From NCBI GenBank assembly GCA_963850305.1, contig CAWKKR010000008.1, positions 480,001 through 544,000 of the forward strand: a stretch of DNA of 64,000 bases. Reading direction: 5' to 3'. The notes under the pieces were generated by a model. That model made no database searches and was not told where the DNA came from. It saw only the letters and a program-made list of their open reading frames with translations. A program made the translations under genes and the position numbers. Shown here piece after piece: positions 44,915-64,000 of this stretch (positions are counted from its first letter, which is position 1; each line of letters begins with the position of its first letter). Source of the stretch: an uncultured delta proteobacterium. Lineage in GTDB: Bacteria; Myxococcota_A; Polyangia; Polyangiales; Polyangiaceae.

Positions 44915-46330
44915 ATGCCTGAAACGCCCGATCGGGGGCTTCTACGGACCTACGAGTCGGTAGTCGCGCTGATCCAGCGACTCGCCGATGCCGGCTGGAT
45001 CGTGTTGGCGCAGTACGTCGCGTGCTGGCTCTATCCGGAGGAGTGGAAGCAATCGAACACGGTCGCCGCGCTCGTCGCGATGATCGCGTTCCATCTCGTC
45101 GCCGAGGTCAACGGCCTCTACCGTTCCTGGCGCGGCGCGCCGCTCAAGCACGAGGCGTTTCAAGCCCTGGCGACCTGGACGATCGCCGCGCCCGTCATCC
45201 TCTTCGTCGCGTTCATCACCAAGACCACGACTCAGTACTCGCGTTTCATCACGACCGTCTGGTTCGTCCTCGTCCCGGTCTTCGTGGTCTCGTGGCGGCT
45301 CGCCTTGCGGTTCGCGCTGATGGAGCTCCGTCGTCACGGCCGGAACTCCCGTACGGTCGCCATCGCCGGCCTCACGCCCATGGCTCAGCGCATCGCGCAG
45401 CGGATCGCGGCGGATCCGTACTCGGGGATGAAGATCCTCGGCTTCTACGACGATCGCAAGCCGGGGCGCCGCCACATCTTGCCGGACCTGTACGGCCCGC
45501 TCGTCGGCGATCTCGACCAGCTCGTCATCGACGCGCGGGACAGCAAGATCGATCGCATCTACATCACGTTGCCGCTCAAGGCCGAACCACGCATCAACTC
45601 GATCGTCCGAAAGCTGGCCGACACGACCGCGACCGTCTTCGTCGTGGCCGACTTCCTGGTGTTCGATCTGCTCCACGCCCAGTGGAGCCAGGTGGGTGAC
45701 ATCCCGGTCGTCAGCATCTTCGACACGCCGTTCCACGGCCTCGGCGGCTGGCTCAAGCGGCTCGAGGACATCGCGTTGAGCCTGCTGATTCTGACGATCA
45801 TCGCGATACCGCTCGCGCTCATCTCGATCGGCGTGAAGCTATCTTCCAGGGGCCCGGTGTTCTTCAAGCAGCGCCGCTACGGGCTGAACGGCAAGGAAAT
45901 CCGCGTCCTCAAGTTCCGGAGCATGACCGTCTGCGAAGACGGGCCCGTCGTCACGCAGGCGACCAAGCATGACGAGCGCGTGACGCGATTCGGCGCGTTC
46001 CTCAGACAGACGTCGCTCGACGAGCTCCCGCAGTTTCTCCAGGTGCTCACCGGGGAAATGAGCATCGTCGGCCCGCGTCCGCACGCCGTCGCCCACAACG
46101 AGCTGTATCGCGGCAAGATCCACGGTTACATGCTGCGCCACAAGGTGAAGCCGGGCATCACCGGCTGGGCGCAGGTGAACGGTTGGCGCGGCGAAACCGA
46201 CACCGTCGACAAGATGGAGAAGCGCGTCGAACACGATCTCGAATACATCCGGAATTGGGGACTGATCTGGGATCTGAAGATCATCATGCTGACCGTCTTC
46301 GGCGCAAAAAAGAGCGAGAACGCGTATTAG
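44915..46330 (+). CDS. wcaJ: Undecaprenyl-phosphate glucose phosphotransferase (WcaJ/EpsZ-type priming transferase)
   Basis: N-terminal TMs, KFRSM, SLDELPQ, MSIVGPRPH, KPGITGWAQVNG, DLEYI. Confidence 0.92.
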   Translation: MPETPDRGLLRTYESVVALIQRLADAGWIVLAQYVACWLYPEEWKQSNTVAALVAMIAFHLVAEVNGLYRSWRGAPLKHEAFQALATWTIAAPVILFVAFITKTTTQYSRFITTVWFVLVPVFVVSWRLALRFALMELRRHGRNSRTVAIAGLTPMAQRIAQRIAADPYSGMKILGFYDDRKPGRRHILPDLYGPLVGDLDQLVIDARDSKIDRIYITLPLKAEPRINSIVRKLADTTATVFVVADFLVFDLLHAQWSQVGDIPVVSIFDTPFHGLGGWLKRLEDIALSLLILTIIAIPLALISIGVKLSSRGPVFFKQRRYGLNGKEIRVLKFRSMTVCEDGPVVTQATKHDERVTRFGAFLRQTSLDELPQFLQVLTGEMSIVGPRPHAVAHNELYRGKIHGYMLRHKVKPGITGWAQVNGWRGETDTVDKMEKRVEHDLEYIRNWGLIWDLKIIMLTVFGAKKSENAY

Positions 46331-46366
46331 CAGGACCGCCGTCGTCTCCAGCGGGGCTCGGGGGCC

Positions 46367-47065
46367 GTGACTGCCCGGCTGCTCGAAGGTCTCCTCGACC
46401 CGTGCGTGGAAACGGAAGAAGTCGATCCGTTCCGGGATCCGATCGACGAGCTCTTGCCGGAGGAGGCGCATACGATCGCGAATGGTCGCGACGCGCGACT
46501 CCTGGAGTTCCGCGCCGGTCGTCACTGTGCGCGGACGGCGCTTGGGCGGCTCGGGGCACCGGCGGGTCCGCTCCTCAGATCGGAGGATAGATCGCCGATC
46601 TGGCCGGCGGGATTCGTCGGCTCGATCACCCACACGCGCGGCGGCGCTCGCGCCTTCTGCGGCGCGGCCGTCGCGCGTTCGAGCGAGGTGCACGCGCTCG
46701 GAATCGATGCAGAATTCGACACGCCGCTCGAGCGCGCGCTCTTTCGCCGGATCTTGACGGAGGTCGAGCGCGCGTGGATCTCGGACGCAGCGGAGAGCGA
46801 CCAGCCGGTGCTCGCGAAGCGCGTCTTCAGCGCGAAGGAAGCCGTGTACAAGTGTCAGTACCCGCTTTCGCGCACGTTCCTGGAATTCGCCGACGTCGAG
46901 CTCGCGCCGTTCACCGGGACGACCTTCACGGCGATGCTTCGAAAGCGCGCGCCGCCGTTCGGAGAGGGGCACACGTTCACGGGTCGGCAAGCTTTGCGCA
47001 GCGGCCTCGTCGTCAGCGCCGTCGCGATCGCAGCTCGAACGAGCGTCACGTCCGCGGGGCGCTGA
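46367..47065 (+). CDS. 4'-phosphopantetheinyl transferase (EntD/Sfp-type)
   Basis: EFRAGR, PIWPAGFVGSITH, LGIDAE, FSAKEAVYK. Confidence 0.92.
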   Translation: MTARLLEGLLDPCVETEEVDPFRDPIDELLPEEAHTIANGRDARLLEFRAGRHCARTALGRLGAPAGPLLRSEDRSPIWPAGFVGSITHTRGGARAFCGAAVARSSEVHALGIDAEFDTPLERALFRRILTEVERAWISDAAESDQPVLAKRVFSAKEAVYKCQYPLSRTFLEFADVELAPFTGTTFTAMLRKRAPPFGEGHTFTGRQALRSGLVVSAVAIAARTSVTSAGR

Positions 47066-47143
47066 CGACACGCGGGCCGGTCGACACGCTTTGCAGATCC
47101 TCGCGCGCATCCCTACATCCAAGTCTCTAACGGGCTGGGGCCA

Positions 47144-48524
47144 TTGGAGAGCGCCAATCTCGTCGCCTACGTTGCTTTGATCGTGTTCGCGCCGGTCGCC
47201 GTCGCGATCTACGGCGTGGTGCGCCCGACGCTCGCGACGGCCGCCGTACTCCTGGGCGCCGTGATGTATCTGCCCGAGCGAGTGAACTTCGATCCGCCCG
47301 GCCTTCCCCCGTTCGACAAGGCAACGATCGGCGGGCTCGCCGCTCTGGTCGGCAGCGCACTGGTCGCTCGACGAACGCTCACGAGCGCGCGGCCGGGCCG
47401 CGGATTCGATCTGTTCGCCCTGTTGCTCATCGCGGGCACGCTCGGCACCGCGCTCACGAACCCGGACGCATTGACTTATGGGTCGTCGTCGCATCCAGGC
47501 ACTGACTCCCTATGACGCCGTGTCGGACACCATCCGGGACTTGCTTTATCTGGTGTTCCCCTTCTTCCTCGGTCGCGCGCTCTACCGCAGCGCACGGGAT
47601 CTGAGAGATCTCATGGGCGTCGTGGTCATGGGCGCGCTCCTGTATTCGCCCCTGGTGCTCATCGAGCTCTGGCTGAGTCCGCAGCTTCACCGCTGGATCT
47701 ACGGCTTCCATCAGCACGACTTCTCGCAGGTGCTCCGGGACGGCGGATACCGGCCGATGGTCTTCATGGAAAACGGTCTCGCACTGGCACGGCTTCTGCT
47801 GACCGCGGCGCTCTTCGCCGCAACGCTCGCGCGGGCGCGCGAGAAGCTTCCCTTCTCGATCCCTCCGGCGCCGGTCGCCGCCTTTCTGACCGTGCTGTTG
47901 CTCGCGTGTCACAGCATGGGCGCCGCCGTGTACCTCCTCGTCTGTCTGCCCCTCCTGATCCTCGCTCGCCCGCGAGTCCACGTGCGCGTGGGAGCAATGC
48001 TCGCGACCGTCGTGCTCGCTTATCCCGTTCTCCGCGCCGCGGATCTGTTCCCCGTGAAACCCCTGCTCGATGTCTTCGCGAGGTTCAGCCAAGACCGGGC
48101 GGATTCGCTCGCCTTCCGCTTCGACAACGAGGCACAGCTCGTCCAGAAAGCGCTCGAGCGAGTCGTGTTCGGTTGGGGTGGGTTCGCGCGGGCCCACATT
48201 TTCGGGGAGTGGGGGAAGGACATCTCCGTCACGGACGGTCAGTGGATCATCGCCTTCGGAGATACGGGCGCGGTGGGCTTCCTGGGTTTGTTCGGGATGC
48301 TCGTGGGGCCCGTCGTGCTCGCCTGGCGGCGCATCACCGCCATCCCACGCGGGCCGACGCGCGTCCTGGTCGCGGGCATGGCGCTCACGACGGCGCTGAA
48401 CGTCGTGGACCTGTTGCCGAACGGGCTCTACTCGGCCCTGCCGCTCTTTTACGCAGGCGCTCTCGCAGGCGTCACGTGCGCACTTTCGAACGATTACGCG
48501 CTCGAAGGAGGAGTCGCCGAATGA
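47144..48524 (+). pseudogene. Wzy polymerase / O-antigen ligase-family membrane protein, frameshifted at about 47480
   Basis: Two overlapping hydrophobic ORFs (47144-47515, 47478-48524) join if one G of GGG at 47480-47482 is removed. Motifs SPQLH, RPMVF, SLAFRF, FGWG. May be a sequencing error. Confidence 0.78.
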
Positions 48525-49517
48525 GCCGAGTGGGCTGCGTCGTCATCGGTCGAAACGAAGCGTCGCGCCTCGGCCGGTGCCTCGCATCGGTGAAGCCTGA
48601 GTGCGATCGCATCGTCTACGTCGACTCCGCATCCGAGGACGCAAGCGTCGGTGTCGCGGAGCGGATGGGCGTGGAGGCGATCACACTCGACTCGAGCAGT
48701 CGTCTTTCCGCGGCCCGCGGCAGAAACGAAGGGTTTCTACACCTGACACGAACGGCGCCGGAGCTCGAGTTCGTGCAGTTCATCGACGGGGACTCGGAGC
48801 TCTCGCACAGCGTGGATCTCGCACGGGGTGGCGGAACTCGACCGCGACGGGGACGTCGCAGCGGCGTGTGGTCGGATCCGAGAACGGCATCCGCGGGCGT
48901 CCATTTACAACGCCATCAACGACATGGAGTGGGTCCACGGCACCGGAGACGTGGAGTGGTGCGCGGGCACGGCATTGTTCCGCGTCGCGCCGTTCCGGGA
49001 TGCCGAGGGATTCGATCCGACGCTCATCGCCGGTGAAGAGCCGGACCTGTGTGTGCGCCTGCGCGCGCGCGGATTTCGCTTTCGCGCGCTCGATCGGGAG
49101 ATGGCGGTCCACGACGCCGACATGACGCGCTTCTCGGAGTGGTGGACTCGCAACGTCCGTACCGGCCATGCCTACGCGGAAGCCGTCGCCAGGAGACCGG
49201 ACGACCCGGCGATGCACGCCGCCAGTGCCGTCCGGAGTATCGCGATCTGGGGACTCGCGCTGCCGGGGTTCTCCGTCGCGTTGATGCCGCCGACCCTCGG
49301 CGCGAGTCTCCTCGCGCCGTTCACCGCCTACCCGGCGTTGTTCGCCCGCGTGTACCGGACCATGCGCGCGCGCGGCTTTTCCCGCGACGACGCGCTGCTC
49401 TACGCCACGTTCTGCGTCCTGGGAAAGTTCCCGCAAGCGTTCGGACTGCTTCGCTTTCAATGGCTCAAGCGAAAAGGTCAGTCGAGCGATCTCATCGAAT
49501 ACAAGAGGCCCGCATGA
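48521..49517 (+). pseudogene. Glycosyltransferase family 2, frameshifted at about 48805
   Basis: MSRVGCVVIGRNE...YVDSAS...AARGRN...QFIDGD in one frame; WISHG...IAGEEPDLC...HDA continues in another. Confidence 0.82.
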
Positions 49518-50491
49518 AAGTTTTGGCGATCGTCGTGAACTATCGAACGGCGGAGCGCACGGTCGAAGCGGTCGCGTCGCTCCTCGACGCCCTCACGCAC
49601 CTGGACGGACGCGTGGCCGTCGTCGACAACGACTCGCAGGACGGCTCGCGTGAGCTCCTCGCTCGAACCATCGCGGAACGCGGCTGGAGCTCGCGCGTCG
49701 AACTCCTTTGCTCGCCGGTCAACGGTGGCTTCGGTTATGGCAACAACCTGGCGATCCGCCGGACCTACGACGCGGAGGATGCTCCCGAGTTTTTCTTCAT
49801 GCTGAACCCCGACGCCGTCGCGGAGCCGGACACGATCGCCGCGCTGCTCGAATTCATGGGGGAGACTCCCGACTGCGGCATCGCTGGGAGCCGCATCTTC
49901 GGCTTCGACGGCGAGCGACACGTCTCCGCGTTCCGCTTCCCGAGCCCGCTCGGCGAGCTCGAGGCTGGTCTGAAGCTCGGGCTCGCGACGCGCGTTCTGC
50001 GGCCCTGGGTCGTCGCGCCGCGTCCGCGCCACGCCACGGGAGAGGTCGACTGGGTGGCGGGCGCGAGCTTCATGGTGCGGCGCACGGTGTTCGATCGTGT
50101 CGGCCTCTTCGACGAGAAGTTCTTTCTCTACTTCGAGGAGGTCGATCTCTCTTTGCGGGCGAAGGCGCAAGGCCTCAAGACCTTCTACGTCCACGAAAGT
50201 CGCGTCAGCCACGAAGGGGCCGTGGCGACCGGCTTGAATGACACGAACCAGCCAGTTCCACCGTACTGGTTCGACTCGCGGAAACGGTTTTTCGCGAAGC
50301 ATCACGGCACGACGACCCTTTTGGCGGCAAACGTCTGCTTCACCGTCGGATTTCTTCTCTTTCGAGTACGGCGAAGGATCCAGCAGAAACCCGATCGCGA
50401 CCCGCCCAATCTTCTCTTCGACTTCATCCGGCACAACCTCCCCACACTCCCGGCCGCTCCGCAGGCCGGAGCTGCGGCGCTCGTTCAATGA
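49514..50491 (+). CDS. Glycosyltransferase family 2
   Basis: IVVNYRT, VVDNDS, GFGYGNN, LNPD, FDEKFFLYFEEVD. ATGA overlap with the previous gene. Confidence 0.92.
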   Translation: MKVLAIVVNYRTAERTVEAVASLLDALTHLDGRVAVVDNDSQDGSRELLARTIAERGWSSRVELLCSPVNGGFGYGNNLAIRRTYDAEDAPEFFFMLNPDAVAEPDTIAALLEFMGETPDCGIAGSRIFGFDGERHVSAFRFPSPLGELEAGLKLGLATRVLRPWVVAPRPRHATGEVDWVAGASFMVRRTVFDRVGLFDEKFFLYFEEVDLSLRAKAQGLKTFYVHESRVSHEGAVATGLNDTNQPVPPYWFDSRKRFFAKHHGTTTLLAANVCFTVGFLLFRVRRRIQQKPDRDPPNLLFDFIRHNLPTLPAAPQAGAAALVQ

Positions 50492-51072
50492 ATCGCGCTG
50501 GGCTCATGGTCGTCGCGGCGCTCGCATGTTCGGCCTGCGGAGCGTCCCACCCCTATGTGTGGGTGGATGATCTCCCTCGCTCCGCAACGGCCGAGGTGCC
50601 CCAGATTCGAGCGGGCGATCGACTGTACGTCCTAGTCAAAGGGCAGGATGCGCTGACCGGCGAAGTCCCCGTTCGTCTCGACGGCAACATCGTTCATCCC
50701 GTCTTCGGCGTCGTGGCCGTCGCCGGCACATCGCCTCGCGAGGCAGCGCGACGCATCGAGGCGCGCCTCCGGAACGTCGTACTGGATGCGAACGTCTCGG
50801 TCGCCATCGCGGCGCGCCTTCCATACCAGGTCAGCGTGGTCGGAGAAGTGACGCACCCTGGACCGCTCGAGCTCGAGCCGGGGGAAGGCGTACTGCAGGC
50901 GCTCGCGAGAGCCGGCGGGTTCACCGAGTTCGCGAACAGAAGCGGCATCTACGTCCTTCGCCAGCGCCCCGAGGACGAACGCGTCCGCTTTCGCTACGAC
51001 GATCTCGCGGGCGGCGATGCACGGAGTCTAGGGTTTCGTCTGCACGACGGTGATGTCGTCGTCGTCGAGTAG
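50488..51072 (+). CDS. Short OPX (Wza-like) polysaccharide export lipoprotein
   Basis: Lipobox CSAC, PES motif (GD..V.V...VRLDGNI..P..G), SLBB (VVGEV..PG, AGGFTEFA). Ends at DGDVVVVE without an outer-membrane-spanning helix. Confidence 0.9.
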   Translation: MNRAGLMVVAALACSACGASHPYVWVDDLPRSATAEVPQIRAGDRLYVLVKGQDALTGEVPVRLDGNIVHPVFGVVAVAGTSPREAARRIEARLRNVVLDANVSVAIAARLPYQVSVVGEVTHPGPLELEPGEGVLQALARAGGFTEFANRSGIYVLRQRPEDERVRFRYDDLAGGDARSLGFRLHDGDVVVVE

Positions 51073-51077
51073 CTATC

Positions 51078-52382
51078 ATGCACTTGGCTCTCGGCGCGCT
51101 CGCTTTCACGCGATTGCTCGGCGCGCTGACCGCGGACGCCGTCGCAGGCGGCCGAACCGAAGTCATGGCCGGCATCGCTCCCGTGCTCCCCGGCGAGTCG
51201 TCCGAGGGCTCCGTCGGCGCGGCGCTCACGCCGTTCGGTGCGCTGCAACTCTCCGAAGAGACGTGGCACCTCGGGCTCAAGTACGCGCCGCGTCTTCTCT
51301 GGCGCGCACCCAACGCCGTCAACGACGGCCGTCCACTGCTGCTGCAGAGCGGCGCGCTCGAACACGAGGCCCTGCTCGGACGTTCGCTCACGCTGACGAC
51401 CGAGGTTCAGGGTAGCGCCGGACGCGTCGACTACAGCATGTACGCCCTTCAGGCGACACCGGGCGGCTCGGTGTCGCCCGCGGGAACCGGCGCTCAACCC
51501 GGGCAGCCTCAGACGACGACACCGGGAACCGCTGCGCCCTCCGCGACGACTGGACAGGCGGGAGTAGCGCCGTCCCAGCTCTCCCTGACGGTCATCGATC
51601 TCTACGACGTGTCGGCGGACACGAAGCTCCAGGCCCACACGGACGCGCGCACGACGCTGACGCTCGGCGCGTCAGGCGGCGACAACGGCCCAATAGGCGC
51701 CGCGAGCGAGAGCTACCCGCGACACACCCGCGCCGCGCTCGAGCCGTCGCTTCGATACCAGCTCTCACCCACCGACAACCTCCGCATGCCGCTCTCGAGC
51801 GAGTACCATCGGGTCAACGGTGTCACCCTCGTGGACGACAGCGCCGAGCTCGAATGGGAGCATCGCTTCCTGCCGCAGACGACACTGCTCCTCGCCGCGG
51901 GCGGCTTGTACGCGAAGCCCCTCGACCCCGCCGGCAACGGCACCTTCTTTCCCTCGGCCGACGCGAGCCTCTCGCACGCCCTCGTGTACGAGCGCGGCTT
52001 GCGGATCCAGGGGACGCTCGATGTCGCTCTTCAGCCGCTCCTGTTCGTGCTCGATGCAGACTTTCGTCCCATCGCGAGCGTGCAAGCGGCGTTCGACATG
52101 ATCGTGCCGCCGCGCCTCCGAGCCGGCCTCCGCGCCTCCTTCTCCACGACGGCCACGGCCAGGCCGTACACACCGGGCGAAGTCGAAACTTACTTCGTCG
52201 CGGAGGCGCCCATCGTCTACGACGTGAGCCCCAACGTCTCGTTCGAGTGCGGCGCGCGGAGCATCTGGAGCGCGCCTCATCTCTCCGAGAGCTTCCAGCT
52301 CGAGAACGCGCAGCTCTGGGGCTACCTCGCGATCACCGCCGTGCTCGGCACGAACGACGATCCGATCGAGATGACGCGGTAA
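51078..52382 (+). CDS. Putative outer-membrane beta-barrel partner of the OPX protein
   Basis: Signal peptide, alternating amphipathic beta-strand pattern, position 5 nt after the short OPX. Confidence 0.65.
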   Translation: MHLALGALAFTRLLGALTADAVAGGRTEVMAGIAPVLPGESSEGSVGAALTPFGALQLSEETWHLGLKYAPRLLWRAPNAVNDGRPLLLQSGALEHEALLGRSLTLTTEVQGSAGRVDYSMYALQATPGGSVSPAGTGAQPGQPQTTTPGTAAPSATTGQAGVAPSQLSLTVIDLYDVSADTKLQAHTDARTTLTLGASGGDNGPIGAASESYPRHTRAALEPSLRYQLSPTDNLRMPLSSEYHRVNGVTLVDDSAELEWEHRFLPQTTLLLAAGGLYAKPLDPAGNGTFFPSADASLSHALVYERGLRIQGTLDVALQPLLFVLDADFRPIASVQAAFDMIVPPRLRAGLRASFSTTATARPYTPGEVETYFVAEAPIVYDVSPNVSFECGARSIWSAPHLSESFQLENAQLWGYLAITAVLGTNDDPIEMTR

Positions 52383-52734
52383 GAAAGCCTGGGCGGCCTC
52401 GGAGGGCACTACCGCCTTCCACGAGGGCTGGAGGCTTGGGCTGGCGAGCGAAACGCTCGAACCCGATCCCCGGCGGTCCCTCGCGACCGAAGGCGACGAC
52501 ATCCTTGCCCTCCGCCGAGACGGTGGACGTTTGCACACCGGTGCTCGTCGCGCTGCAGGACGAGGCCCGTGGTCCGATGGACGCGCCGCGCCCCTGCCAG
52601 GTGGGGGGCCGCTGCGCAACTCTGGGGTTACGTTGCGATCACCGCCGTGCTCGGCACGAACGACGATCCAATCGAAATGACGCGGTGAGAAGGCCTGGGC
52701 GGCCTCAGAGGGCACTACCGCCTTCCACGAGGGC
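52308..52734 (+). repeat. Imperfect 121-bp direct repeat (52308-52428 and 52614-52734)
   Basis: Manual alignment shows 9 mismatches and no gaps. The repeat covers the last 24 codons, the stop and 46 bp downstream of the beta-barrel gene. Confidence 0.93.
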
Positions 52735-52780
52735 GTGTCGAGGTTGAGGTCGATAGCTGCGACGACTGGCGCGAGCCCGC

Positions 52781-53211
52781 ACGCTCGAGACGTGCCTCTC
52801 GACGCTCGAGACGTGCCTCTCGACGCTCGAGACGTGCCTCTCGACGCTCGAGACGTGCCTCTCGACGCTCGAGACGTGCCTCTCGACGCTCGAGACGTGC
52901 CTCTCGACGCTCGAGACGTGCCTCTCGACGCTCGAGACGTGCCTCTCGACGCTCGAGACGTGCCTCTCGACGCTCGAGACGTGCCTCTCGACGCTCGAGA
53001 CGTGCCTCTCGACGCTCGAGACGTGCCTCTCGACGCTCGAGACGTGCCTCTCGACGCTCGAGACGTGCCTCTCGACGCCGACGGACGCATCCTCGCGCCG
53101 CGTGATGCGCCTCTCGACGCTCGAGACGTGCCTCTCGACGCTCGAGACGTGCCTCTCGACGCCGACGGACGCGCCCTCGCGCCGCGTGAGCTGGCTCTCG
53201 ACGCCGACGGA
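52781..53211. repeat. Tandem array (VNTR): 21-bp unit ACGCTCGAGACGTGCCTCTCG x14, 42-bp unit, 21-bp x2, 42-bp variant, partial unit
   Basis: Counted directly from the sequence; 21-bp units are identical and there are no spacers. Confidence 0.95.
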
Positions 53212-53284
53212 CCCTATCGTTCCATTCAGGGTCGACGTAGCGCGGAGCGCTTACTCACTCGCGCAATGCGCGGCGCAGCGCGCC

Positions 53285-53698
53285 CTAGGGCACTTGGAAG
53301 TCTTGGCGGACCGTGAGACCGCAGGAGACGTACTCCGCCTCGAGAGGGGGATGCTTGCTCGCTAGATCGCCATCTAGGTCGCAGAAGATGAGCTCCCGCT
53401 CTCCCGCTGAGTAGAGGTCGGTCGCTTTCGAGAGAACCGCTCCCAGGACCATCTCGTCGAACGGCTTGAGGGACTTCACGGTGAAGACTTTCAGCGTCCG
53501 AGCGACTACGGCGGGTGACGGATTTATCCGCTCCATCGCACCTACGGCGGTCTGGACCTGCTGTTCGAGTGTCGAAAGCGCTGTCTTTCGATCGGCGTCG
53601 GCGAGGTCGCTCAGCTCATCGCGGGTTCGCCGCGAACGGGTCCGGGCATTCGACGACCCTGCCGACGTCTGCGAGCAAGGGCGCGCCTCAGAATTCAT
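53285..53698 (-). pseudogene. Probable 5'-truncated PIN-like protein remnant
   Basis: The C-terminal ~110 aa (LKPFDEMVLGAVL...LIFCDLDGDL) resemble the second half of a PIN-like fold. No convincing N-terminus before the copolymerase stop. Confidence 0.4.
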
Positions 53699-55466
53699 TT
53701 TCGCGGACGTATCTTCGGAGCTCGACGAACGCGATGAGCAAGGTCGCCAGGAGCAAACCAAGCACCGAGCCAATGCCGGACCGCAAGAAGACGGTCCGGC
53801 GAAGCGGCGGGGTCGTGGGTTCCGTCGGGGACGTGATCTGGTAGCGCGCGGCGGCCAGGGCTTTCTCGAGATCGAGGTCGAGCTCGCTCGCCTTGTAGCG
53901 GGCGAAGAGCTTGGCATGAAGCTCTTTGGTGCCGGCATACGTGCGCGTGAGCTCGGCGTATTGCGCTTCGACGTCCGGGAGTTCGCGAGCGGCTCGGTCG
54001 AGCTCCGCGAGGTCTCCACTCACGCGTGCCAGCTCTCTCGATGCGGCATTCTTCGATACCCGAAGGTCCGCGATGCGATCGTTCAAGGCGCGGAGCGCGG
54101 GATCGGCGCGGCGCTCGGTGTCCGTGATGGCGCCCTGAACGGTTTGCCTGGAGAGCCGTTCGAGTTCCTGCTCTTGCCGTTCGAGATGCTGGACCTCGGG
54201 ATGCTCGTCACCCAGCCCGGAAGCGCGTGCTTGACCGAGCTTCTGCTTCACGTCGACGAGAGCCGTCTCGTAAGGCGCCGCGGCCTCCACCTTGTGCGAG
54301 AAGAGCGGATCGTCGGCCGTGATCTTGTTTCGCTCGGCGGCGAGCGCGAGGGTCGAGCGCTCCACCTCCGCAGCCAGATCCGTCTGACGCGCCTTGAGCG
54401 ACAGGCGCGCCGTGAACTCCTCTTTTGCCTGGTCGGGGAGACCATCGGGGTGTCGCTCCTTGAAGTCCCGGAGCGACGATTCCATCTTCGTGAGCTCGGC
54501 GTCGTTCGTGTCGAGCTGGCCTCTCAGGAACGTCACCTCCGCACTCATCACGTGCAGCGTCTTCTCGACCTCGAACGCGACGAACTCCTTCGACTGCTGC
54601 TCGAGAAAGCGCGTCGCGTCGCGCGTGCTGCGGTCCGTGAACGTCGCGCGGTAGGTCCCGAGTGCGATCCCGTCGAATTGGAGGCGGTTCCGCGCGGAGA
54701 CGACCTCTTCCCGCGTCGGAGGACGCGGCGAGAGAGCGGTCAGCGTGCGACCGATGAGTTCCGGACTCCTGAAATCCATCTCCGCGGCGGAGAAGAACCT
54801 GTCGTCGGACTGTGTCCCGGGGTTGTCGGAGGGTTTCGGAGTGAGCCGGATCTCGAATGCGGCGCGACCTTGCGGCGGTTTCACCCGCACGCTCGCGGCG
54901 CCGGCGAAGCTTGCCGCGAACACACATCCGGCAATCAATGGGTGATACGGGCGAAGGAAACGTCCGCCGCGAATGATGCCGCCCACGACGTCGTGGAGCG
55001 TGAGTCCCTCGTCACCCGCACGAAACTGCAGGTCGCGATTCTGACCCGGGAACTTCGCGAGGGACCGCACGCCCTGGTGCGTGATCGCGTCGATCGGGAC
55101 GTGGGAGATGGCGATCGTCGACGGGCGGCCCGGATCCTCGGGCTGCGAGAGAAAGCTCATCACGGTCTCGCCGACGCGGAGCACGTCACCGGCGCGCAGC
55201 AACCCGTCGGCGGTGACCCGTTCACCGTTCACGAAGGTGCCGTTGGTGGACTTGAGATCGACGACGCGATGCTCCCCGTTCACGAGAATGAGCCTCGCGT
55301 GGCGTTGCGACACCGACGCTTGGTCTAGCCGGATGTCTGCATCTCTCGCACGCCCGATGACATACTCGCCGGGCCTCAGCGGAAATATGGACCCGGGGCG
55401 CGCGCCCGCTAGCACGAGCAGGAACCCGCCGTCGCCGAAGTCCGCACGGTCCGAAAGCGGCCCCAT
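53688..55466 (-). CDS. FHA domain fused to a polysaccharide copolymerase (Wzz/Wzc periplasmic part), without a tyrosine-kinase domain
   Basis: FHA motifs IGR, SQRH, STNG; then TM1, a long periplasmic coiled coil (DEHPEV), Pro-rich plus Gly-rich TM2 (GIGSVLGLLL) and a ~10-aa tail. Confidence 0.85.
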   Translation of the reverse strand: MGPLSDRADFGDGGFLLVLAGARPGSIFPLRPGEYVIGRARDADIRLDQASVSQRHARLILVNGEHRVVDLKSTNGTFVNGERVTADGLLRAGDVLRVGETVMSFLSQPEDPGRPSTIAISHVPIDAITHQGVRSLAKFPGQNRDLQFRAGDEGLTLHDVVGGIIRGGRFLRPYHPLIAGCVFAASFAGAASVRVKPPQGRAAFEIRLTPKPSDNPGTQSDDRFFSAAEMDFRSPELIGRTLTALSPRPPTREEVVSARNRLQFDGIALGTYRATFTDRSTRDATRFLEQQSKEFVAFEVEKTLHVMSAEVTFLRGQLDTNDAELTKMESSLRDFKERHPDGLPDQAKEEFTARLSLKARQTDLAAEVERSTLALAAERNKITADDPLFSHKVEAAAPYETALVDVKQKLGQARASGLGDEHPEVQHLERQEQELERLSRQTVQGAITDTERRADPALRALNDRIADLRVSKNAASRELARVSGDLAELDRAARELPDVEAQYAELTRTYAGTKELHAKLFARYKASELDLDLEKALAAARYQITSPTEPTTPPLRRTVFLRSGIGSVLGLLLATLLIAFVELRRYVRENEF

Positions 55467-55501
55467 CTACGGTTTCTAAGACTCGTGAGGCCGCGTTGGG
55501 A

Positions 55502-56566
55502 CTAGGCCGTCGCCTGCACCGCGGACGTCACGAGGTCGACCGGCTCCGGCGTCGCGGCGCAGCTGTCGGCGCGAGACGCGAGCGCGCTGCCATCGGCCGT
55601 GCCGCACTGCCCCGCGCTTCCCGTCGCGAGGCGCCGGGCCTCGAGCTCCGGACCGAAGGTCTCCCGCACCCACCGTCCGACGTCGCTCGGAGGCGCCAGG
55701 AGTTCGGCAGACATCGCGACCGCGTGCAAGTCTCGGATCATGTCTTCGGCGGACCGGTACCGAGCCCGGACGTCGTGCTCCAGAGCTCGGAGGCACACCC
55801 CATCCAGACAGCGGGGCGGCGCGAGACCCAAGCTGCTCGGCGCCGGAGCCGGAGTGGTCTGCAGGCGCGCGAGCATGTCTTCGTAGGTCGATGCGTCGAC
55901 GAGTTCCTGACCGGTGAGTGCGTTCCACAGAATGACCCCAGCCCAGAAAACGTCGGACACCAGACCGCCACCGGCGAGCCCGATACGGGACATTCGGCAC
56001 GTGCCGTCGAGTCCAACGAGCAGGTTGCGCGGAGACAGGTCGCGAGAAGGCAGGTCGATGACCCTGGGGGCGTCCCGTACGAGGTGATGGGCCGCGCGGA
56101 GACCGCCGAGCGCGTCGAGGACGATGGGAACGATGAGCCGCGGCGGGCGGTACGTCGGGTGCCGCGACAGGAGGTCGTGGAAGCTGCCCCCGTGGACGTA
56201 GTCCATGACGACGTAAGGCTGCTCCCGGTAAAAGCCGGTATCGACGACGCCGAGGACGCGCGGGTCCGAGATGGTGCCGGCGATTCGCGCTTCTTCGAGG
56301 AGCGCGCGCGCCATCGCGCGGTCGCTCGCGAGGCTCTTTCTGAGCATCTTCAAGGCGAACAGGCGCTCGAATCCACCCTCTCCCCTCGCTCGAACGAGAT
56401 AGACGATGGTGACCGGGCCCCGCGCGATGCGGCCTAGAACCTCGTATCTGCCGAGCGTCTGCACTCCGGCGGCCCCGAGCGAACGTAATGTTGGCTGGTT
56501 GCCGAGAACGGCCCGGTCGTCGGCGTGACCGGTCGGCCCTGCGTCTTCAGTGATGGAGGTGGACAT
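55502..56566 (-). CDS. Degenerate Hanks-type Ser/Thr kinase (pseudokinase)
   Basis: LGRYEV, FALK, EARI, VVMDY, RDLSPRN and SDVFWAG present. Gly-loop degraded, DFG replaced by RIG, activation segment/APE absent. Confidence 0.8.
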   Translation of the reverse strand: MSTSITEDAGPTGHADDRAVLGNQPTLRSLGAAGVQTLGRYEVLGRIARGPVTIVYLVRARGEGGFERLFALKMLRKSLASDRAMARALLEEARIAGTISDPRVLGVVDTGFYREQPYVVMDYVHGGSFHDLLSRHPTYRPPRLIVPIVLDALGGLRAAHHLVRDAPRVIDLPSRDLSPRNLLVGLDGTCRMSRIGLAGGGLVSDVFWAGVILWNALTGQELVDASTYEDMLARLQTTPAPAPSSLGLAPPRCLDGVCLRALEHDVRARYRSAEDMIRDLHAVAMSAELLAPPSDVGRWVRETFGPELEARRLATGSAGQCGTADGSALASRADSCAATPEPVDLVTSAVQATA

Positions 56567-57950
56567 TCGGCAAGTACCGATCGAGCCCGATCTTGAGGAC
56601 CAGACCGAGCGCCGCTCCGACGCCGGCCGCGACCGGGGCGATCAATTCGCGCGAGATACGGAGCAGCCCGAAGCGACGGAATGCGAACCAGAACACGACG
56701 AGCATCGGCAGCTCGCTCACGGTCGTTCCCCACAGCACGCCTTTGAGGTGGCCCAGGTACCAACCGAGCGGGATGCCGATCCAGACGGCGATGAACCGTC
56801 CTGCGTTGGCGATCAGGTGAAAGCGCGGATGCCCGAGGGCGATGATGCACACGCCGCACGGATACAAGATGCACTGAAGCCCCACCCGCACGCACAGAAA
56901 CTGGAGCATGTACCCCGCGGCGCGATATCGCGGGTCATACAGGAGGCGAACGACGTTCGGGCCGAGCACGACGAGGGCGCCAAGCGCCGGCATCGCCAGC
57001 AAGTCGAGCTTGAGGCGTGCAGCGTAATAGTGACGCCCGACCTCGGCGGGCCGCTCCCGGACGACTTGACTGAACAGCCCGAAGAAGACGGCGTACGTGA
57101 GCCTGTTCACGACCTGTCCCACCGCCGAGCCGAGCATGCCGGCGACGCTGTAGACACCGAGCGTCGCCATCGTGAGGAAGCGCCCGAGCAGGATCCGGTC
57201 GCCCTCGCCAGCGAGAAAGGTGAAGAGACTCGAGCCGAAGATCCATTTTCCGAAATTGGTGATCGTCCGCGCCGCAGTCTTGTCCCACCGGAATCGATTC
57301 ACGTAGCCAGTGGGCAACAGGTGACTCCCGACGACCTCGAGGACCGATTGCGTCATGCCGCCGGCGATGAGCGCCCACACGGTCGGGGACAGCTTCGCCC
57401 AGACGAACATGACGATCATGGCCGCCACCTTCGACGTGACCTCGACGACGAGAAGCGGACCGCGGCGCACGTGGCGGGCGAGCGTATCGAGCTTCGTCGA
57501 GCCGAACCCGTGGATCACGAGCGCGAACGACGCGACGGTGATCATCGCGAAGAGCCGTGGCTCGTGATAGAGCAACGACACCGGGTACGCGAGCGCGATC
57601 GCCGCGCCCCACAGCATGAATCCACGAATCACCTGGATGGTCCATGCTGTGTTCAGGAAGTCGAGGTCGTCCCCATGCTCGCTGGAGATGATGCTGTCCT
57701 TGAGCCCGACGTCCGTCAGCATGCCCAGCGCGACCATGAACACCGTGACGATCGCCGTCAGCCCGTACGCCGCGGGGAAGAGCAGACGCGACAGGATCAA
57801 GTTCGTCGCCAGACGGAGCCCCTGACTCAGCAGATACCCGATGATCTCGATGACGGAGCCGCGAACGACGAGGCGCCGCAGCCGATTCGAATGCTCCGCG
57901 GTGTCTGCGGCGGCTGCGCGAATCGGGTGAACGACGCCGGTGTCGGTCAT
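56547..57950 (-). CDS. wzx: Wzx oligosaccharide flippase
   Basis: About 12 TM segments, ILSRLL.P..YGL, TDVGL, TAWT, DRILLGRFL, LGVYSVA, LYDPRY. Confidence 0.9.
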   Translation of the reverse strand: MTDTGVVHPIRAAAADTAEHSNRLRRLVVRGSVIEIIGYLLSQGLRLATNLILSRLLFPAAYGLTAIVTVFMVALGMLTDVGLKDSIISSEHGDDLDFLNTAWTIQVIRGFMLWGAAIALAYPVSLLYHEPRLFAMITVASFALVIHGFGSTKLDTLARHVRRGPLLVVEVTSKVAAMIVMFVWAKLSPTVWALIAGGMTQSVLEVVGSHLLPTGYVNRFRWDKTAARTITNFGKWIFGSSLFTFLAGEGDRILLGRFLTMATLGVYSVAGMLGSAVGQVVNRLTYAVFFGLFSQVVRERPAEVGRHYYAARLKLDLLAMPALGALVVLGPNVVRLLYDPRYRAAGYMLQFLCVRVGLQCILYPCGVCIIALGHPRFHLIANAGRFIAVWIGIPLGWYLGHLKGVLWGTTVSELPMLVVFWFAFRRFGLLRISRELIAPVAAGVGAALGLVLKIGLDRYLPNVHLHH

Positions 57951-57953
57951 CGG

Positions 57954-60900
57954 TCACGTCGCGAAGTTCGAAGTACTCGAGCGCTCGACCGTGGGGACAT
58001 CGCCCGGCGGGGCGGCCGCGAACTCGGCGGGCGGAGCGTCGTCGAGATCGGCCCTGGGCGCAAACAGCTTCCGCACGCCGGACCGCGGCACCCGGGCCGT
58101 TGCGAGCACGTTCGAGAGACACGTGGACGTCAGTTCCGCATGTTCTTCGCTCACGAAGCTCGTGTGACCACCGCTCACCTCTACGACGAAGAGTTCGCCC
58201 AGCACCACCGGGCCCCAGCCGTTGCGAGGGTCGAAAATCTTCGTGTCGCGTTCGCGAGACCGAAGCAAGAAGACCGTGCCGGGGTACGGCTGCGGCTCGT
58301 AGCGGCTCTGCATGTCGGTCCACGCTGCCGCCACGGCCTCGTTCCGGAACTCGTACGGAAACCACCGAGACAAGCGCGAAAGCACGGACACTCGCAAATC
58401 CTGCCCGCGACGCAGGAGTCCCTCACCGAACGCCGTCAGCGCGTAGGAGACGCCATCGGACCGAACGCGAGTCGAATGGTATGCGACCCTTTCCGCGAGC
58501 GACCACATGGGGATCTGCGGATTCACGGCATCCAGCAGGACGAGCGCGCCAATCTGCTCGCCGCTCGCTCGAAGCTGCATCGCCATCTCGAGCGCCGCGG
58601 TCCCTCCCCCGGAGAAGCCCCCCAGGAAATAGGGGCCGTGCGGTTGCACCTCGCGCATGTCCTCGATGAACTCGCGAGCCATCTCCTCGACGGAGGTATG
58701 AGGAGCCCGTAGTCCGTCGACGCCGCGATGCTGAAGCCCGTAGAAGGGTTGATCGTCCCCGAGCTTCGCCGCCACCGGGCGGAGATTCATCGGATTGCCG
58801 CCTCGGCCCGCGACGCAGAAGAACGGGGGCAGCGACCCTTCGGGCTTCATCGGCACGACGGTCGACCAGGAACGCGACGCCCGTCCCTCGGCCCGCGTCG
58901 CGACGGTCATCTCCTGTCGAACGCGGACCGCCATCCTTTCGACTGTCGGAGCTTCGAACAGCGCGGACAGCGACAGGCGCACGCCGAACTCCTGGCGAAC
59001 CCGCGAAAGCAACCGGACCCCGAGCAGGGAGTGCCCGCCAAGCGCGAAGAAGTCGTCGGAAAGGCCCACATCGGGAATCTCGAGACTCGTCTGCCAGACA
59101 GCGACGAGTCGCCGTTCGACCTCATCGCGGGGCTCGTGGCGCGGTTCGGCGGACCCGAGGCTCCGGACCGGCGCCGGCAGGGCGTTCCGATCGATCTTGC
59201 CGCTCGGCGTGAGCGGCAGTGCGTCCATTCGCACGAACGCAGCCGGAACCATGTGGATCGGCAAGTACCGCCTCGCGTGTTCGCGGAGCGCGGAGGTATC
59301 GAGCGAGATCCCGGCGCGAGGCACGAGGTAGGCGACAAGTTCGAAGGAGCTGTCAGGCCGCGCGACGACCACGGCCTCCTTCACCGTCCGGTGCCCGGCG
59401 AGCACGGCCTCGATCTCACCGAGCTCGACGCGGTGCCCGCGCACTTTCACCTGATGGTCGTTTCGCCCCAGGTACTCGAACACACCGCCGGCAGCGATCC
59501 GGACGAGGTCGCCGGTTCGATACATCCTTGCGCCGGACACGAATGGGTCATCGAGAAATCGCTCCCGGGTGAGCTCCGGACGCGCGTGGTACCCGCGCGC
59601 CACCGACGGCCCGGCGATGTGGAGCTCACCCGCGGCGCCGATGGGTCTCTGACGGAGCTCCGGATCGAGCACGTAAAATCGCGTGTTCGCGATCGGACGC
59701 CCGATCGGCACGGGCCCCGGCTGGGCCTGGACAGCATGTGCGCTCGACCAGACGGTAGTCTCCGTGGGGCCGTACGCGTTCACGATCTGTCCTCGAATGA
59801 CCTTCGAGAGCTCCAGAACGAGCGTCTCGGAGAGCGCCTCGCCGGCGAGAATCAGCTGCCGGAGTCGACCGAGCGCGCTGCGCGTTTCCGGATCCTCGAT
59901 GAGCGTCGCGATCTGCGAAGGCGTACACTGAAAATGGGTTATGCCGAAACGTTCGATGAGTCTCGCGATCCCGAAGTCGGACCGACGCGCGTCGCCGAGC
60001 AGCTGATCTCCGAGCAGGACCACCGTGAGCCCGTGGGTGAGCGAACCGAGGATCTCGAGCACGCTGATGTCGAACGACACGCTCGTGCCGGCAAGCCAGA
60101 CGCCGTGGTCACGGAGATCGACGATGTCCTCCATGCCCCGAAAGAACGCGATGACGTTCCGGTGCTCGACCAGCACTCCTTTGGGTTTGCCCGTGGAGCC
60201 CGAGGTGTAGATGGAATAAGCGAGCTGATCCGGCGCTCCCGGTACGTCGAGAGGCTCCGCACTCTCGCGCAAGATGCTCGCCCGTGTGTGGTCGTCGTCG
60301 AGCACGAGCCGCTCCACGGGAGACTCGACGAGATCCATCGTCGAGGTCTCCGCGACGAGAAAGCGCGCCCCCGAGTCGGCGAGCATGAAGGACAGTCGCT
60401 CGCGCGGGTACGATGGATCGAGCGGGAGGTATCCACCGCCGGCGGTATGGACGGCAAGGAGCGCAACGACGAGGTCGAGCGATCTGTGCAGACAGACGCC
60501 GACCGGCGCGTCTCGCTTCACCCCCAGGGACCGGAGCGCACGAGCCAGCCTGTTCACCCGCACCCGCAGCTCTCGGTAAGTGACGCTGTGGCCCTCGAAC
60601 CAGACCGCGATCTTCTCCGGCCTCCGATCGACCTGCTTCTCGAAGAAGTGATGCACCAGAGCGTCCCGGGCAAGCGGTGGCTGCGCCGCGTTCCACTCGA
60701 GAAGCTCGGCACGCTGCGCGTACAGACCGTCGAGATCCCCGATGCGCGTCTCCGGCGCGGTGGCGACCTCGGAAAGGAGCTCTTGAAAGCACGCGACGAA
60801 GCGCCGGGCCGTCGCTTCCTCGAACAGATCGAGCGCGTACTCGAGGGCCCCAGAAACGGTCGCACCGTCATCGCGAACGTAGAGCGCCAGATCGGTGAGC

Positions 60901-63900: not shown

Positions 63901-64000
63901 GCCACACCGTCGAGGAGGACCGTGAACTCCTCGAGACGCAGTCGCACCGTTTCGCGGTCGAAGAGATTCGTATTGAAGCTCGCTTCCAGAACGACGTCTT
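57954..64000 (-). CDS. Non-ribosomal peptide synthetase, (C)-A-T-C-A-T-TE; 5' part outside window
   Basis: Frame stays open to the window edge (…FNTNLFDRETV, end of a C domain). A-domain motifs TSGSTGKPKG, FDIS, YGPTE and YRTGD occur twice; T domains GGHSML and GGHSLL; C motif SHLIWDG; TE GFSGG. Confidence 0.96.
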   Translation of the reverse strand, partial: DVVLEASFNTNLFDRETVRLRLEEFTVLLDGVARDSSQRLGELPLIPPRECSLLESWETAAPGSPPVRTIAGLFEAQASRTPDAVAARSLTAAVTYRELDERANRLARHLVALGVKPADRVGISLGRGTELLVALLGVLKAGATYVPLDPEFPASRLAFIANDAGLSALVTEASLDDTPLQVETRVVLDAHADRIAACSSERPPREDDAEQIAYVLHTSGSTGKPKGVLVANGSIANFLAAMAREPGLSPDDVVGAVTTLSFDISVLELFLPLTVGAQVVVIPREVGMDGRALAELLVRFGVTFLQATPSTFRLLVEARFPFGARFKALIGGETLPRELALAMVERCGSVWNMYGPTEATVWSTCHRVENVPGSVPIGRPIAGTRLLVLDERRERVPVGVLGELYIGGEGVARGYLGRPELTRERFITISRADIGSGVFYRTGDLVHWRRDGTLLFSRRADNQVKVRGYRIELGEIESVIAEDPRVRECTVVVREDVPGDRRIVAYVASSGPVKPPELRARVEQSLPGYMIPQHFVVLSELPRTPNQKIDRNGLPLPDASGESARERVLPRSESERIVAGIWSTLFGVERVGVDEDFFAMGGHSMLAARMLARVGESSGVDVGLARFFRKPTVEALARYVEQGSVQPSAENPIIPRTHAGPAALSPSQQRLWFMDALLPGTSFLNLPCAFRIRGEFDVEIARRVLGEIVRRHDVLRTSIVQDDTGPKQLAHDSIEVNLELDDLSSWPGREPPIEERLFPWLARPLDPEHGPAWRAGIATLAEGDKVLWFVASHLIWDGVSFELFEREFRVLYDAFAKGGESPLPPVQVSYADYVEWELSSRDDATRRRELDYWIRNLEGIPANLELPLDGRRPAQMSYRGSVVPFAVPADVLSRLRDLGKTEGTTLQMVLLAVLNVALYRYTGERDLVVGTAIDERVRPELKDAIGLFVNTLVLRTKLDDTAPFPVLLAAVRETCIGAYEHRRIPFEQVVEALRPVRDRSRTPLFQVFFAFRQVTPIASGLDLREVEVHAGSSLTDLALYVRDDGATVSGALEYALDLFEEATARRFVACFQELLSEVATAPETRIGDLDGLYAQRAELLEWNAAQPPLARDALVHHFFEKQVDRRPEKIAVWFEGHSVTYRELRVRVNRLARALRSLGVKRDAPVGVCLHRSLDLVVALLAVHTAGGGYLPLDPSYPRERLSFMLADSGARFLVAETSTMDLVESPVERLVLDDDHTRASILRESAEPLDVPGAPDQLAYSIYTSGSTGKPKGVLVEHRNVIAFFRGMEDIVDLRDHGVWLAGTSVSFDISVLEILGSLTHGLTVVLLGDQLLGDARRSDFGIARLIERFGITHFQCTPSQIATLIEDPETRSALGRLRQLILAGEALSETLVLELSKVIRGQIVNAYGPTETTVWSSAHAVQAQPGPVPIGRPIANTRFYVLDPELRQRPIGAAGELHIAGPSVARGYHARPELTRERFLDDPFVSGARMYRTGDLVRIAAGGVFEYLGRNDHQVKVRGHRVELGEIEAVLAGHRTVKEAVVVARPDSSFELVAYLVPRAGISLDTSALREHARRYLPIHMVPAAFVRMDALPLTPSGKIDRNALPAPVRSLGSAEPRHEPRDEVERRLVAVWQTSLEIPDVGLSDDFFALGGHSLLGVRLLSRVRQEFGVRLSLSALFEAPTVERMAVRVRQEMTVATRAEGRASRSWSTVVPMKPEGSLPPFFCVAGRGGNPMNLRPVAAKLGDDQPFYGLQHRGVDGLRAPHTSVEEMAREFIEDMREVQPHGPYFLGGFSGGGTAALEMAMQLRASGEQIGALVLLDAVNPQIPMWSLAERVAYHSTRVRSDGVSYALTAFGEGLLRRGQDLRVSVLSRLSRWFPYEFRNEAVAAAWTDMQSRYEPQPYPGTVFLLRSRERDTKIFDPRNGWGPVVLGELFVVEVSGGHTSFVSEEHAELTSTCLSNVLATARVPRSGVRKLFAPRADLDDAPPAEFAAAPPGDVPTVERSSTSNFAT

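Follow-up and report, generated by a model that had tools for sequence, protein, structure and literature searches.

Gene organization of the locus

The subject of this analysis is a 64,000-bp stretch of DNA, referred to below as the window, from a member of the Polyangiaceae (genome G000, contig C8, positions 480001–544000). The genome assembly comprises 6.26 Mb in 11 contigs, with a G+C content of ~66%. From position 44915 onward, the window enters an island of 13 genes in which those of a Wzx/Wzy-dependent polysaccharide pathway stand together with a hybrid of polyketide synthase (PKS) and non-ribosomal peptide synthetase (NRPS). Genes were called from an open reading frame (ORF) listing and from Pfam and NCBIfam profile searches, and the next 40 kb beyond the window were included.

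The island is laid out as two convergent arms. On the plus strand, the order is wcaJ, a gene for a Sfp-type 4'-phosphopantetheinyl transferase (PPTase), wzy, two family 2 glycosyltransferase genes (GT2a and GT2b), a gene for a short outer membrane polysaccharide export (OPX) protein, and a gene for a predicted EpsX-like beta-barrel. On the minus strand, a PKS gene with adenylation, thiolation, ketosynthase, and acyltransferase domains (A-T-KS-AT) is followed by an acyl carrier protein (ACP)-aminotransferase gene, the NRPS gene, wzx, a kinase-like gene, and a gene for a copolymerase-like protein with a FHA domain. An initial annotation of the window had described wcaJ, wzy, the two GT2 genes, OPX, the copolymerase, and wzx on two convergent arms, and each was recovered here, as was the PPTase gene that it had placed between wcaJ and wzy. 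Three things had escaped it, namely the kinase-like gene between wzx and the copolymerase gene, the extension of the NRPS past the window together with the ACP-aminotransferase and A-T-KS-AT genes, and a frame break in each of wzy and GT2a.

The NRPS stop codon precedes the wzx start by exactly 3 nt (TGA-ccg-ATG), just as had been annotated. Further along this arm, wzx shares 20 nt with the kinase-like ORF, and 35 nt separate the latter from the copolymerase gene. ATGA overlaps join the aminotransferase gene to the NRPS gene and the wzy stop to the GT2a start.

The PKS/NRPS assembly line

What had been annotated as an NRPS is the end of a longer hybrid line. According to Pfam, the line comprises A-T-KS-AT (1544 amino acids (aa); 67308–71942, minus strand, beyond the window), ACP-aminotransferase (690 aa; 65225–67297, minus strand, also beyond the window), and an NRPS with two condensation (C) domains and a terminal thioesterase (TE) in the order C-A-T-C-A-T-TE (57954 to ~65228, minus strand, running past the window end at 64000). 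The longest ORF of the NRPS has an apparently spurious, arginine-rich extension at its N-terminus, and the gene probably starts at the methionine at residue 234 of this ORF, overlapping the upstream stop.

The first, or loading, adenylation domain of the line matches the amino-acid adenylation model TIGR01733 with 434 bits (cut-off 317.4). The aminotransferase of the 690-aa protein is of class III, and no ketoreductase, dehydratase, or enoylreductase domain is present in the line. Adenylation codes were located by motif anchoring. The module that follows the aminotransferase reads DILQLGMVW, which we take to be a glycine code, and the last module reads DILQIAAVW, presumably glycine-like. The TE retains the serine of its GxSxG motif.

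The same DILQLGMVW code recurs in related cassettes of G254, G013, G222, and G046. In orthologous cassettes (G186, G120, G053, G013, G145, and G162), the code of the loading domain differs in nearly every case, while the next module keeps a glycine-type code. Such a combination of a variable loading code and a constant glycine module suggests a family of products that would vary in their first residue.

The only two condensation domains in the genome are those of the NRPS at 57954. In the second (residue ~1445 of the longest ORF), SHLIWDG occupies the place of the HHxxxDG motif, with the second histidine kept.

Glycan genes and frame breaks

The wcaJ gene (44915–46330, plus strand) encodes an initiating phosphoglycosyl transferase (PGT) of the WcaJ type, with Bac_transf and CoA_binding_3 domains. 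Its TIGR03023 score of 532 bits exceeds the cut-off of 410.75, as expected of an initiating polyprenyl-phosphate sugar-phosphate transferase, and it is 79–82% identical to wcaJ of the congeners G001 and G006. The Sfp-type PPTase gene (46367–47065, plus strand) combines 4PPT_N and ACPS domains. Both proteins that define a Wzx/Wzy-dependent pathway are encoded. The flippase gene wzx (56547–57950, minus strand) matches Polysacc_synt_3 with an E value of 1.2e-46, and the polymerase gene wzy (47144–48524, plus strand) has a weak Wzy_C match and is split over two frames (47144–47515 and 47478–48524). The product of wzy is 42% identical to the intact 476-aa Wzy of G044, residues 6–122 of which align in one frame and 113–444 in the next, for a break near 47.50 kb.

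GT2a (48521–49517, plus strand) likewise occupies two frames. Alignment with a 332-aa GT2 protein of G060 places residues 9–100 in one frame and 102–332 in the next, for a break near 48.81 kb. The longest ORF of GT2b (49049–50491, plus strand) has Glycos_transf_2 and Glyco_tranf_2_3 matches at aa 158–394. The end of GT2a, in another frame, runs over the first ~155 codons of this ORF, whose true start probably lies near 49.5 kb.

Public reads bearing on the breaks were available as contigs from three soil-metagenome runs of one study, with shares of 0.13, 0.09, and 0.00. These contigs cover only positions 48034–48184 and 48527–48859, so that the wzy break lies outside their cover. No RNA run was found among the public data. 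In one near-identical contig of 151 nt (run X1), a single letter is missing at 48809, a difference that would close the GT2a frame. This contradiction comes from one record at a depth of 2, from a run that is possibly the source sample, and is only a hint that the GT2a break is an indel error of the assembly. The host bacterium is probably soil-dwelling.

The short OPX protein (194 aa; 50488–51072, plus strand) has Poly_export and one SLBB domain only and lacks a membrane-spanning C-terminal part. Its N-terminus ends in ...ALAC, a lipoprotein-type signal, and its best NCBIfam match is EpsY, with 158 bits against a cut-off of 320. The neighboring 434-aa protein (51078–52382, plus strand) had been annotated as a beta-barrel. 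The barrel is only predicted; neither Pfam nor NCBIfam gave a match to the protein. In the Atlas feature search, the nearest cluster is the EpsX family (0.98), with beta-barrel porin families next, which is to be read as a lead without an alignment. Myxococcota is the phylum most often represented in the EpsX cluster. A weak BLASTP match (E 6e-07) connects the protein to the 400-aa neighbor of the short OPX in G145.

In the opposite arm, the copolymerase-like protein (53688–55466, minus strand) has a FHA domain at aa 35–99 and a match to the chain-length determinant model TIGR03007 at aa 271–589, scoring 82.5 bits against a cut-off of 278.85. It has a hydrophobic C-terminal stretch at ~aa 558–587 and no Wzz match in Pfam. 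The Hanks-type kinase-like protein (354 aa; 55502–56566, minus strand) covers only positions 1–145 of the 263-position Pkinase profile. A search of its 354 residues for the Gly-rich loop and the HRD...K..N, DFG, and APE motifs found none of them, and the protein is predicted to be inactive as a Hanks-type Ser/Thr kinase. Homologues stand beside wzx in L101 (42% identity) and G057 (30%), and one is found in the glycan/PKS locus of G145.

The copolymerase thus has an N-terminal FHA domain and a pseudokinase as its upstream neighbor, and no bacterial tyrosine kinase (BY-kinase) part is present. Control of polymerization of a phospho-threonine or pseudokinase type may replace the usual tyrosine kinase here. 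Pseudokinases can act as functional regulators, for example EcpK (PMC12004946).

Two arms of one glycan system

The flippase and copolymerase genes are confined to the minus arm, which also contains the NRPS, and the plus arm has neither. In G044, G060, G054, L084, L102, and L104, homologues of wzx (34–47% identity) adjoin homologues of wzy. The two proteins are therefore partners in these relatives, with their counterparts here lying in opposite arms. In addition, the AMP-ligase gene to the left of wcaJ and the 269-aa ORF to the right of the PKS gene abut one another in the congener G004; therefore, the 13 genes from wcaJ to the PKS (~27 kb) are absent from that genome as one block. Taken together, the separation of functions between the arms, the wzx-wzy neighborhood elsewhere, and the single insertion or deletion support the initially annotated view that the two arms form one glycan system.

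Association of the assembly line with glycan genes

The closest wzx among all those searched (65% identity) lies on the metagenome contig L101. One strand of this contig carries an NRPS gene (C-A-T-TE), a family 4 glycosyltransferase gene, wzx, another family 4 glycosyltransferase gene, and a kinase gene, with gaps of no more than 24 nt.

A second case is G145, which belongs to another genus of the same family. It has an orthologous NRPS (45–48% identity), aminotransferase (48%), and PKS (49%), and the genes of this cassette alternate with those for a Wzx-like protein, a short OPX (38%) and its 400-aa neighbor, a GT2, Wzy, and WcaJ (61%). Further PKS/NRPS genes occur in the locus, and the glycan genes are flanked by PKS/NRPS genes on both sides. 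ORFs of 221 and 211 aa upstream of the NRPS in G145 and L101, respectively, were compared with each other and are not alike.

A survey of 251 genomes of the family identified the aminotransferase cassette in 33. Among the 32 cassette genomes other than the present one, eight, from seven genera, have a Poly_export gene within 30 kb on the same contig (G145, G186, G254, G278, G013, G315, G238, and G222). The chance expectation is ~0.6 such cases, given 83 OPX hits in 32 genomes of ~8 Mb, although this is a rough figure and related genomes are not independent. In G186, G254, G238, and G222, tblastn and Pfam searches placed PGT, OPX, Wzx, Wzy, and glycosyltransferase genes beside the cassette, sometimes with a PPTase gene. 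In G013, G278, and G315, OPX alone was confirmed. The supposition in the initial annotation that NRPS/PKS-plus-glycan pairings recur is thus borne out in L101, G145, and seven further genomes of the family.

A candidate pathway

The gene content of the island can be arranged into the following scheme. Each gene string would be co-transcribed. The line would load an amino acid, add one malonyl unit, and transaminate the resulting beta-keto group, as no ketoreductase, dehydratase, or enoylreductase is available to process it otherwise. Addition of glycine and a glycine-like residue would then yield a 3,4-diamino-acyl dipeptide. The terminal TE would release this chain onto a sugar nucleophile of the undecaprenyl pyrophosphate (Und-PP)-linked repeat unit built by WcaJ and the two GT2 enzymes. 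This coupling step is assigned to the TE because no other candidate coupling enzyme is present within the island. The decorated unit would be flipped by Wzx and polymerized by Wzy together with the copolymerase, and the EpsY/EpsX-like pair would export the polymer.

The most likely explanation, with a probability of about even, is that the island encodes one pathway, by which a small glycine-containing peptide would end up on a lipid-linked repeat unit. A wider proposal is more tentative and, at present, rather doubtful. It holds that there is a family of exopolysaccharides (EPSs) carrying a covalent non-ribosomal peptide, in which the TE would unload diamino-acyl-Gly-Gly onto the Und-PP-linked unit, the translationally coupled Wzx would be specialized for flipping the unit with its peptide, and the arrangement would recur across phyla.

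A number of observations weigh against a single pathway. No enzyme or product that directly links peptide to sugar was identified, and the acceptor of a TE is not readable from its sequence. In 24 of the 32 other cassette genomes, the contig with the cassette shows no OPX gene closer than 30 kb, with the nearest OPX lying 77 kb to 3 Mb away in G162, G333, G210, and G020. Cassette orthologues without glycan genes occur in G074, G110, G010, G162, G128 (two loci), G053, and G102, and outside the family none of seven cassette loci (G102, G074, G110, G046, G053, and two in G128) has wzx or OPX. Viewed from the glycan side, none of 11 loci in 10 relatives has an NRPS near its wzx homologue, and the wzx loci of L084, L102, and L104 are also without one. 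The initial annotation had held that its proposal would fall if wzx/wzy homologues usually occurred without NRPS and PPTase genes, and with respect to the NRPS this is what these loci show, which amounts to half of that test. When species-representative genomes were searched for this junction, only six wzx relatives came up, and the best of these (47% identity) was accompanied by wzy and not by an NRPS. Among six congeners, included in a search of 60 relatives, no close wzx orthologue was found, the best match having 26% identity. Scans of the 52–59 kb region with promoter and terminator patterns found no more sites than in shuffled sequences. Finally, the two frame breaks (wzy at 47478–47515 and GT2a at ~48809) fall within 1.4 kb of each other.

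The PPTase gene adds to these points. Its position between wcaJ and wzy had been offered as evidence for a link between the NRPS and the glycan genes, an argument that fails because the wcaJ-PPTase pair is conserved independently of NRPS genes. Within the order, 86 of the 151 genomes have a PPTase homologue; one of the 151 (G155) is unpublished, and nothing stated here depends on it. At 20 PPTase loci across the order, wcaJ lies within the fetched stretch in 13 and an A-T gene is beside the PPTase gene in three. No NRPS accompanies the wcaJ-PPTase pair in 11 of the 13, nor in the congeners G001 and G006, where wcaJ (81–82% identity) is followed by the PPTase gene at the same site. In G001, the pair adjoins a glycan locus of another kind, which includes GT2 genes and an ABC-2 transporter. 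The wcaJ-linked PPTase is also the sole PPTase-family match in G044, G076, G097, and G001. The carrier proteins of G044 amount to four small ones with no megasynthase, and its PPTase gene is still located inside a Wzx/Wzy locus. G000 itself has two PPTase-family genes, the Sfp-type gene of the window and an AcpS-like gene, and carrier domains occur elsewhere in its genome, in frames at C8:1714272 (2161 aa), C4:336805 (1413 aa), and C8:1600862 (649 aa). As proof of an NRPS-glycan link, the PPTase was rejected, since the pair is conserved without an NRPS and supplies the only PPTase of several relatives. Most simply, it would be a general cell enzyme in a conserved position.

Alternative explanations

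The foremost alternative is that of two separate products, in which the assembly line would make a free small metabolite, such as a signal, chelator, or antibiotic, and the glycan genes an ordinary polysaccharide. The cassette would then have landed in a variable locus and be at most co-regulated with its neighbors. This is a possibility to be taken seriously, albeit less probable than not. The site is indeed variable in congeners, being empty in G004, occupied by a different glycan locus beside the wcaJ-PPTase pair in G001, and marked by the same pair in G006. The many cassettes without glycan genes and the many wzx/wzy pairs without an NRPS fit this explanation, as does the MatE exporter gene directly after the NRPS in G145. 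TE domains, moreover, normally hydrolyze or cyclize their products. Against two separate products stands the fact that the plus arm depends on a flippase and a copolymerase encoded in the NRPS gene string, the flippase gene at a distance of 3 nt. The linkage, seen in eight of the 32 other cassette genomes and in eight genera of the family, lies far above the rough chance estimate, and the linkage in L101 accompanies a Wzx of 65% identity. In G145, glycan genes are even enclosed between PKS/NRPS genes.

A second alternative is a small glycoconjugate rather than a polymer, in which the peptide would carry one oligosaccharide unit, or individual sugars attached by the GT2 enzymes, and leave the cell through Wzx as a glycopeptide. 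This draws on the same linkage evidence as a peptide-decorated polysaccharide (L101, G145, and the OPX-linked genomes of the family), and the frame-broken wzy of the assembly would be of no consequence, as the unit could form without Wzy. A precedent exists in the carenaemins of Collimonas (PMC8313283). It is nonetheless improbable, given that parts for the export of a high polymer (the copolymerase, the short OPX, and the predicted barrel) are kept in G000 and OPX is kept in relatives, while the break in wzy, like that at 48809, may stem from the assembly. The last alternative, a decaying locus without a product, would take the wzy and GT2a breaks, two within 1.4 kb, as real and the kinase-like gene as having lost its catalytic motifs, but is very unlikely in view of the near-identical short-read contig (depth 2) without the extra letter at 48809, where homology puts the GT2a break, of the ~12 kb of NRPS and PKS frames that, unlike wzy and GT2a, are open, and of the regulatory functions that pseudokinases such as EcpK can have (PMC12004946).

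Relation to known systems

Hybrid assembly lines with a built-in aminotransferase are known from the iturins. In MycA and ItuA, a KS domain, a carrier, and a class-III aminotransferase are followed by C-A-T, and a beta-keto group is converted to a beta-amino group. The island has the same order of KS, carrier, class-III aminotransferase, and C-A-T, distributed over three adjacent genes. Unlike MycA and ItuA, however, it loads through an amino-acid adenylation domain instead of a fatty-acyl-AMP ligase, has only two NRPS modules after the aminotransferase, and lies inside a glycan locus.

The TE of Pks13 passes its chain to trehalose. Pks13 (PMC12933137) offers a model for a terminal TE handing its chain to a sugar, the step proposed for the island. 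Pks13 is of another family, acts on another acceptor, and comes from another group of organisms, and the parallel is not one of similarity between TE domains.

Among polysaccharide systems, the nearest comparison is the Wzx/Wzy-dependent EPS pathway of Myxococcus xanthus, which has a composite translocon of EpsY (a short OPX) and EpsX (a beta-barrel) (PMC9601211, PMC9603273, PMC7484181). Both systems have a PGT, Wzx, and Wzy, the copolymerase has a copolymerase-like counterpart in the island, and there a short OPX of ~200 aa is followed by a protein of ~430 aa with the EpsX family as its nearest Atlas cluster. In contrast to the M. xanthus pathway, the island has no BY-kinase part and instead carries a FHA domain on the copolymerase and a Hanks-type pseudokinase, has a PKS/NRPS line in the wzx gene string, and has an OPX and a copolymerase that score below the NCBIfam cut-offs.

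Two arrangements of assembly lines with sugar genes have been reported. In the Roseobacter group, an orphan cluster of NRPS, PKS, glycosyltransferase, and PPTase genes occurs in 28 of 57 genomes, and its product is described as uncharacterized (PMC4337385). The likeness to the island, a small NRPS and a PKS with a sugar transferase and a PPTase, is one of gene content only. The Roseobacter cluster differs in having four genes and in belonging to Alphaproteobacteria, and its description mentions no Wzx/Wzy/OPX kit (PMC4337385). In Collimonas arenae, production of carenaemins requires both a PKS-NRPS locus with a PPTase gene and a separate locus for a Wzy-dependent polysaccharide (PMC8313283). 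A long chromosomal distance separates the two Collimonas loci, which yield a diffusible product, whereas the island is one unit with OPX and copolymerase genes. In the literature searched, no NRPS/PKS within a Wzx/Wzy locus had a characterized product, and the Collimonas and Roseobacter systems were the only analogues. The island is accordingly a variant of a known but uncharacterized NRPS/PKS-plus-glycan arrangement, for which the proposed peptide-on-glycan chemistry would be undescribed.

The chemistries of surface polysaccharides and of non-ribosomal peptides are regarded as distinct, and different tools are used to mine genomes for each. If a peptide is indeed transferred to the repeat unit, a class of orphan NRPS/PKS clusters would turn out to serve glycan tailoring instead of antibiotic production. 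There would also be a new mode of TE unloading and a new junction of assembly-line and Wzx/Wzy chemistry, and the structures of polysaccharides from soil bacteria would need to be re-examined for amino-acid substituents. The island represents a compact case of 13 genes, with a congener without the island as a natural control and several independent relatives for comparison.

Additional features of the island and of PPTase loci

The gap between the convergent arms contains a tandem array of 21-nt units (52781–53212), for which Tandem Repeats Finder reports 18.2 copies, or ~18, with 93% matches. Long ORFs coded by the repeat run on both strands of this stretch and are probably spurious.

With regard to carrier proteins elsewhere in G000, those of 2161, 1413, and 649 aa are possible further clients of its single Sfp-type PPTase. 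Across the order, wcaJ and a Sfp-type PPTase gene are found a few kb apart (L033, L044–L051, L053, L056, L057, L059, L063, and L094–L097), and they are adjacent in the congeners. A lone wcaJ-linked PPTase occurs in several genomes of 4 Mb.

Three genomes from other families have an A-T gene immediately next to the PPTase gene (L059, 10435–13422; L060, 5964–8972; and L063, 10424–13393). The adenylation domain of this A-T protein is interrupted by ~1 kb, and in two of the loci wcaJ is found ~3 kb further on. The equivalent of this A-T protein in G145 (L066, 13458–18011) consists of a formyltransferase, an adenylation domain with a luciferase-like monooxygenase insert, and a thiolation domain.

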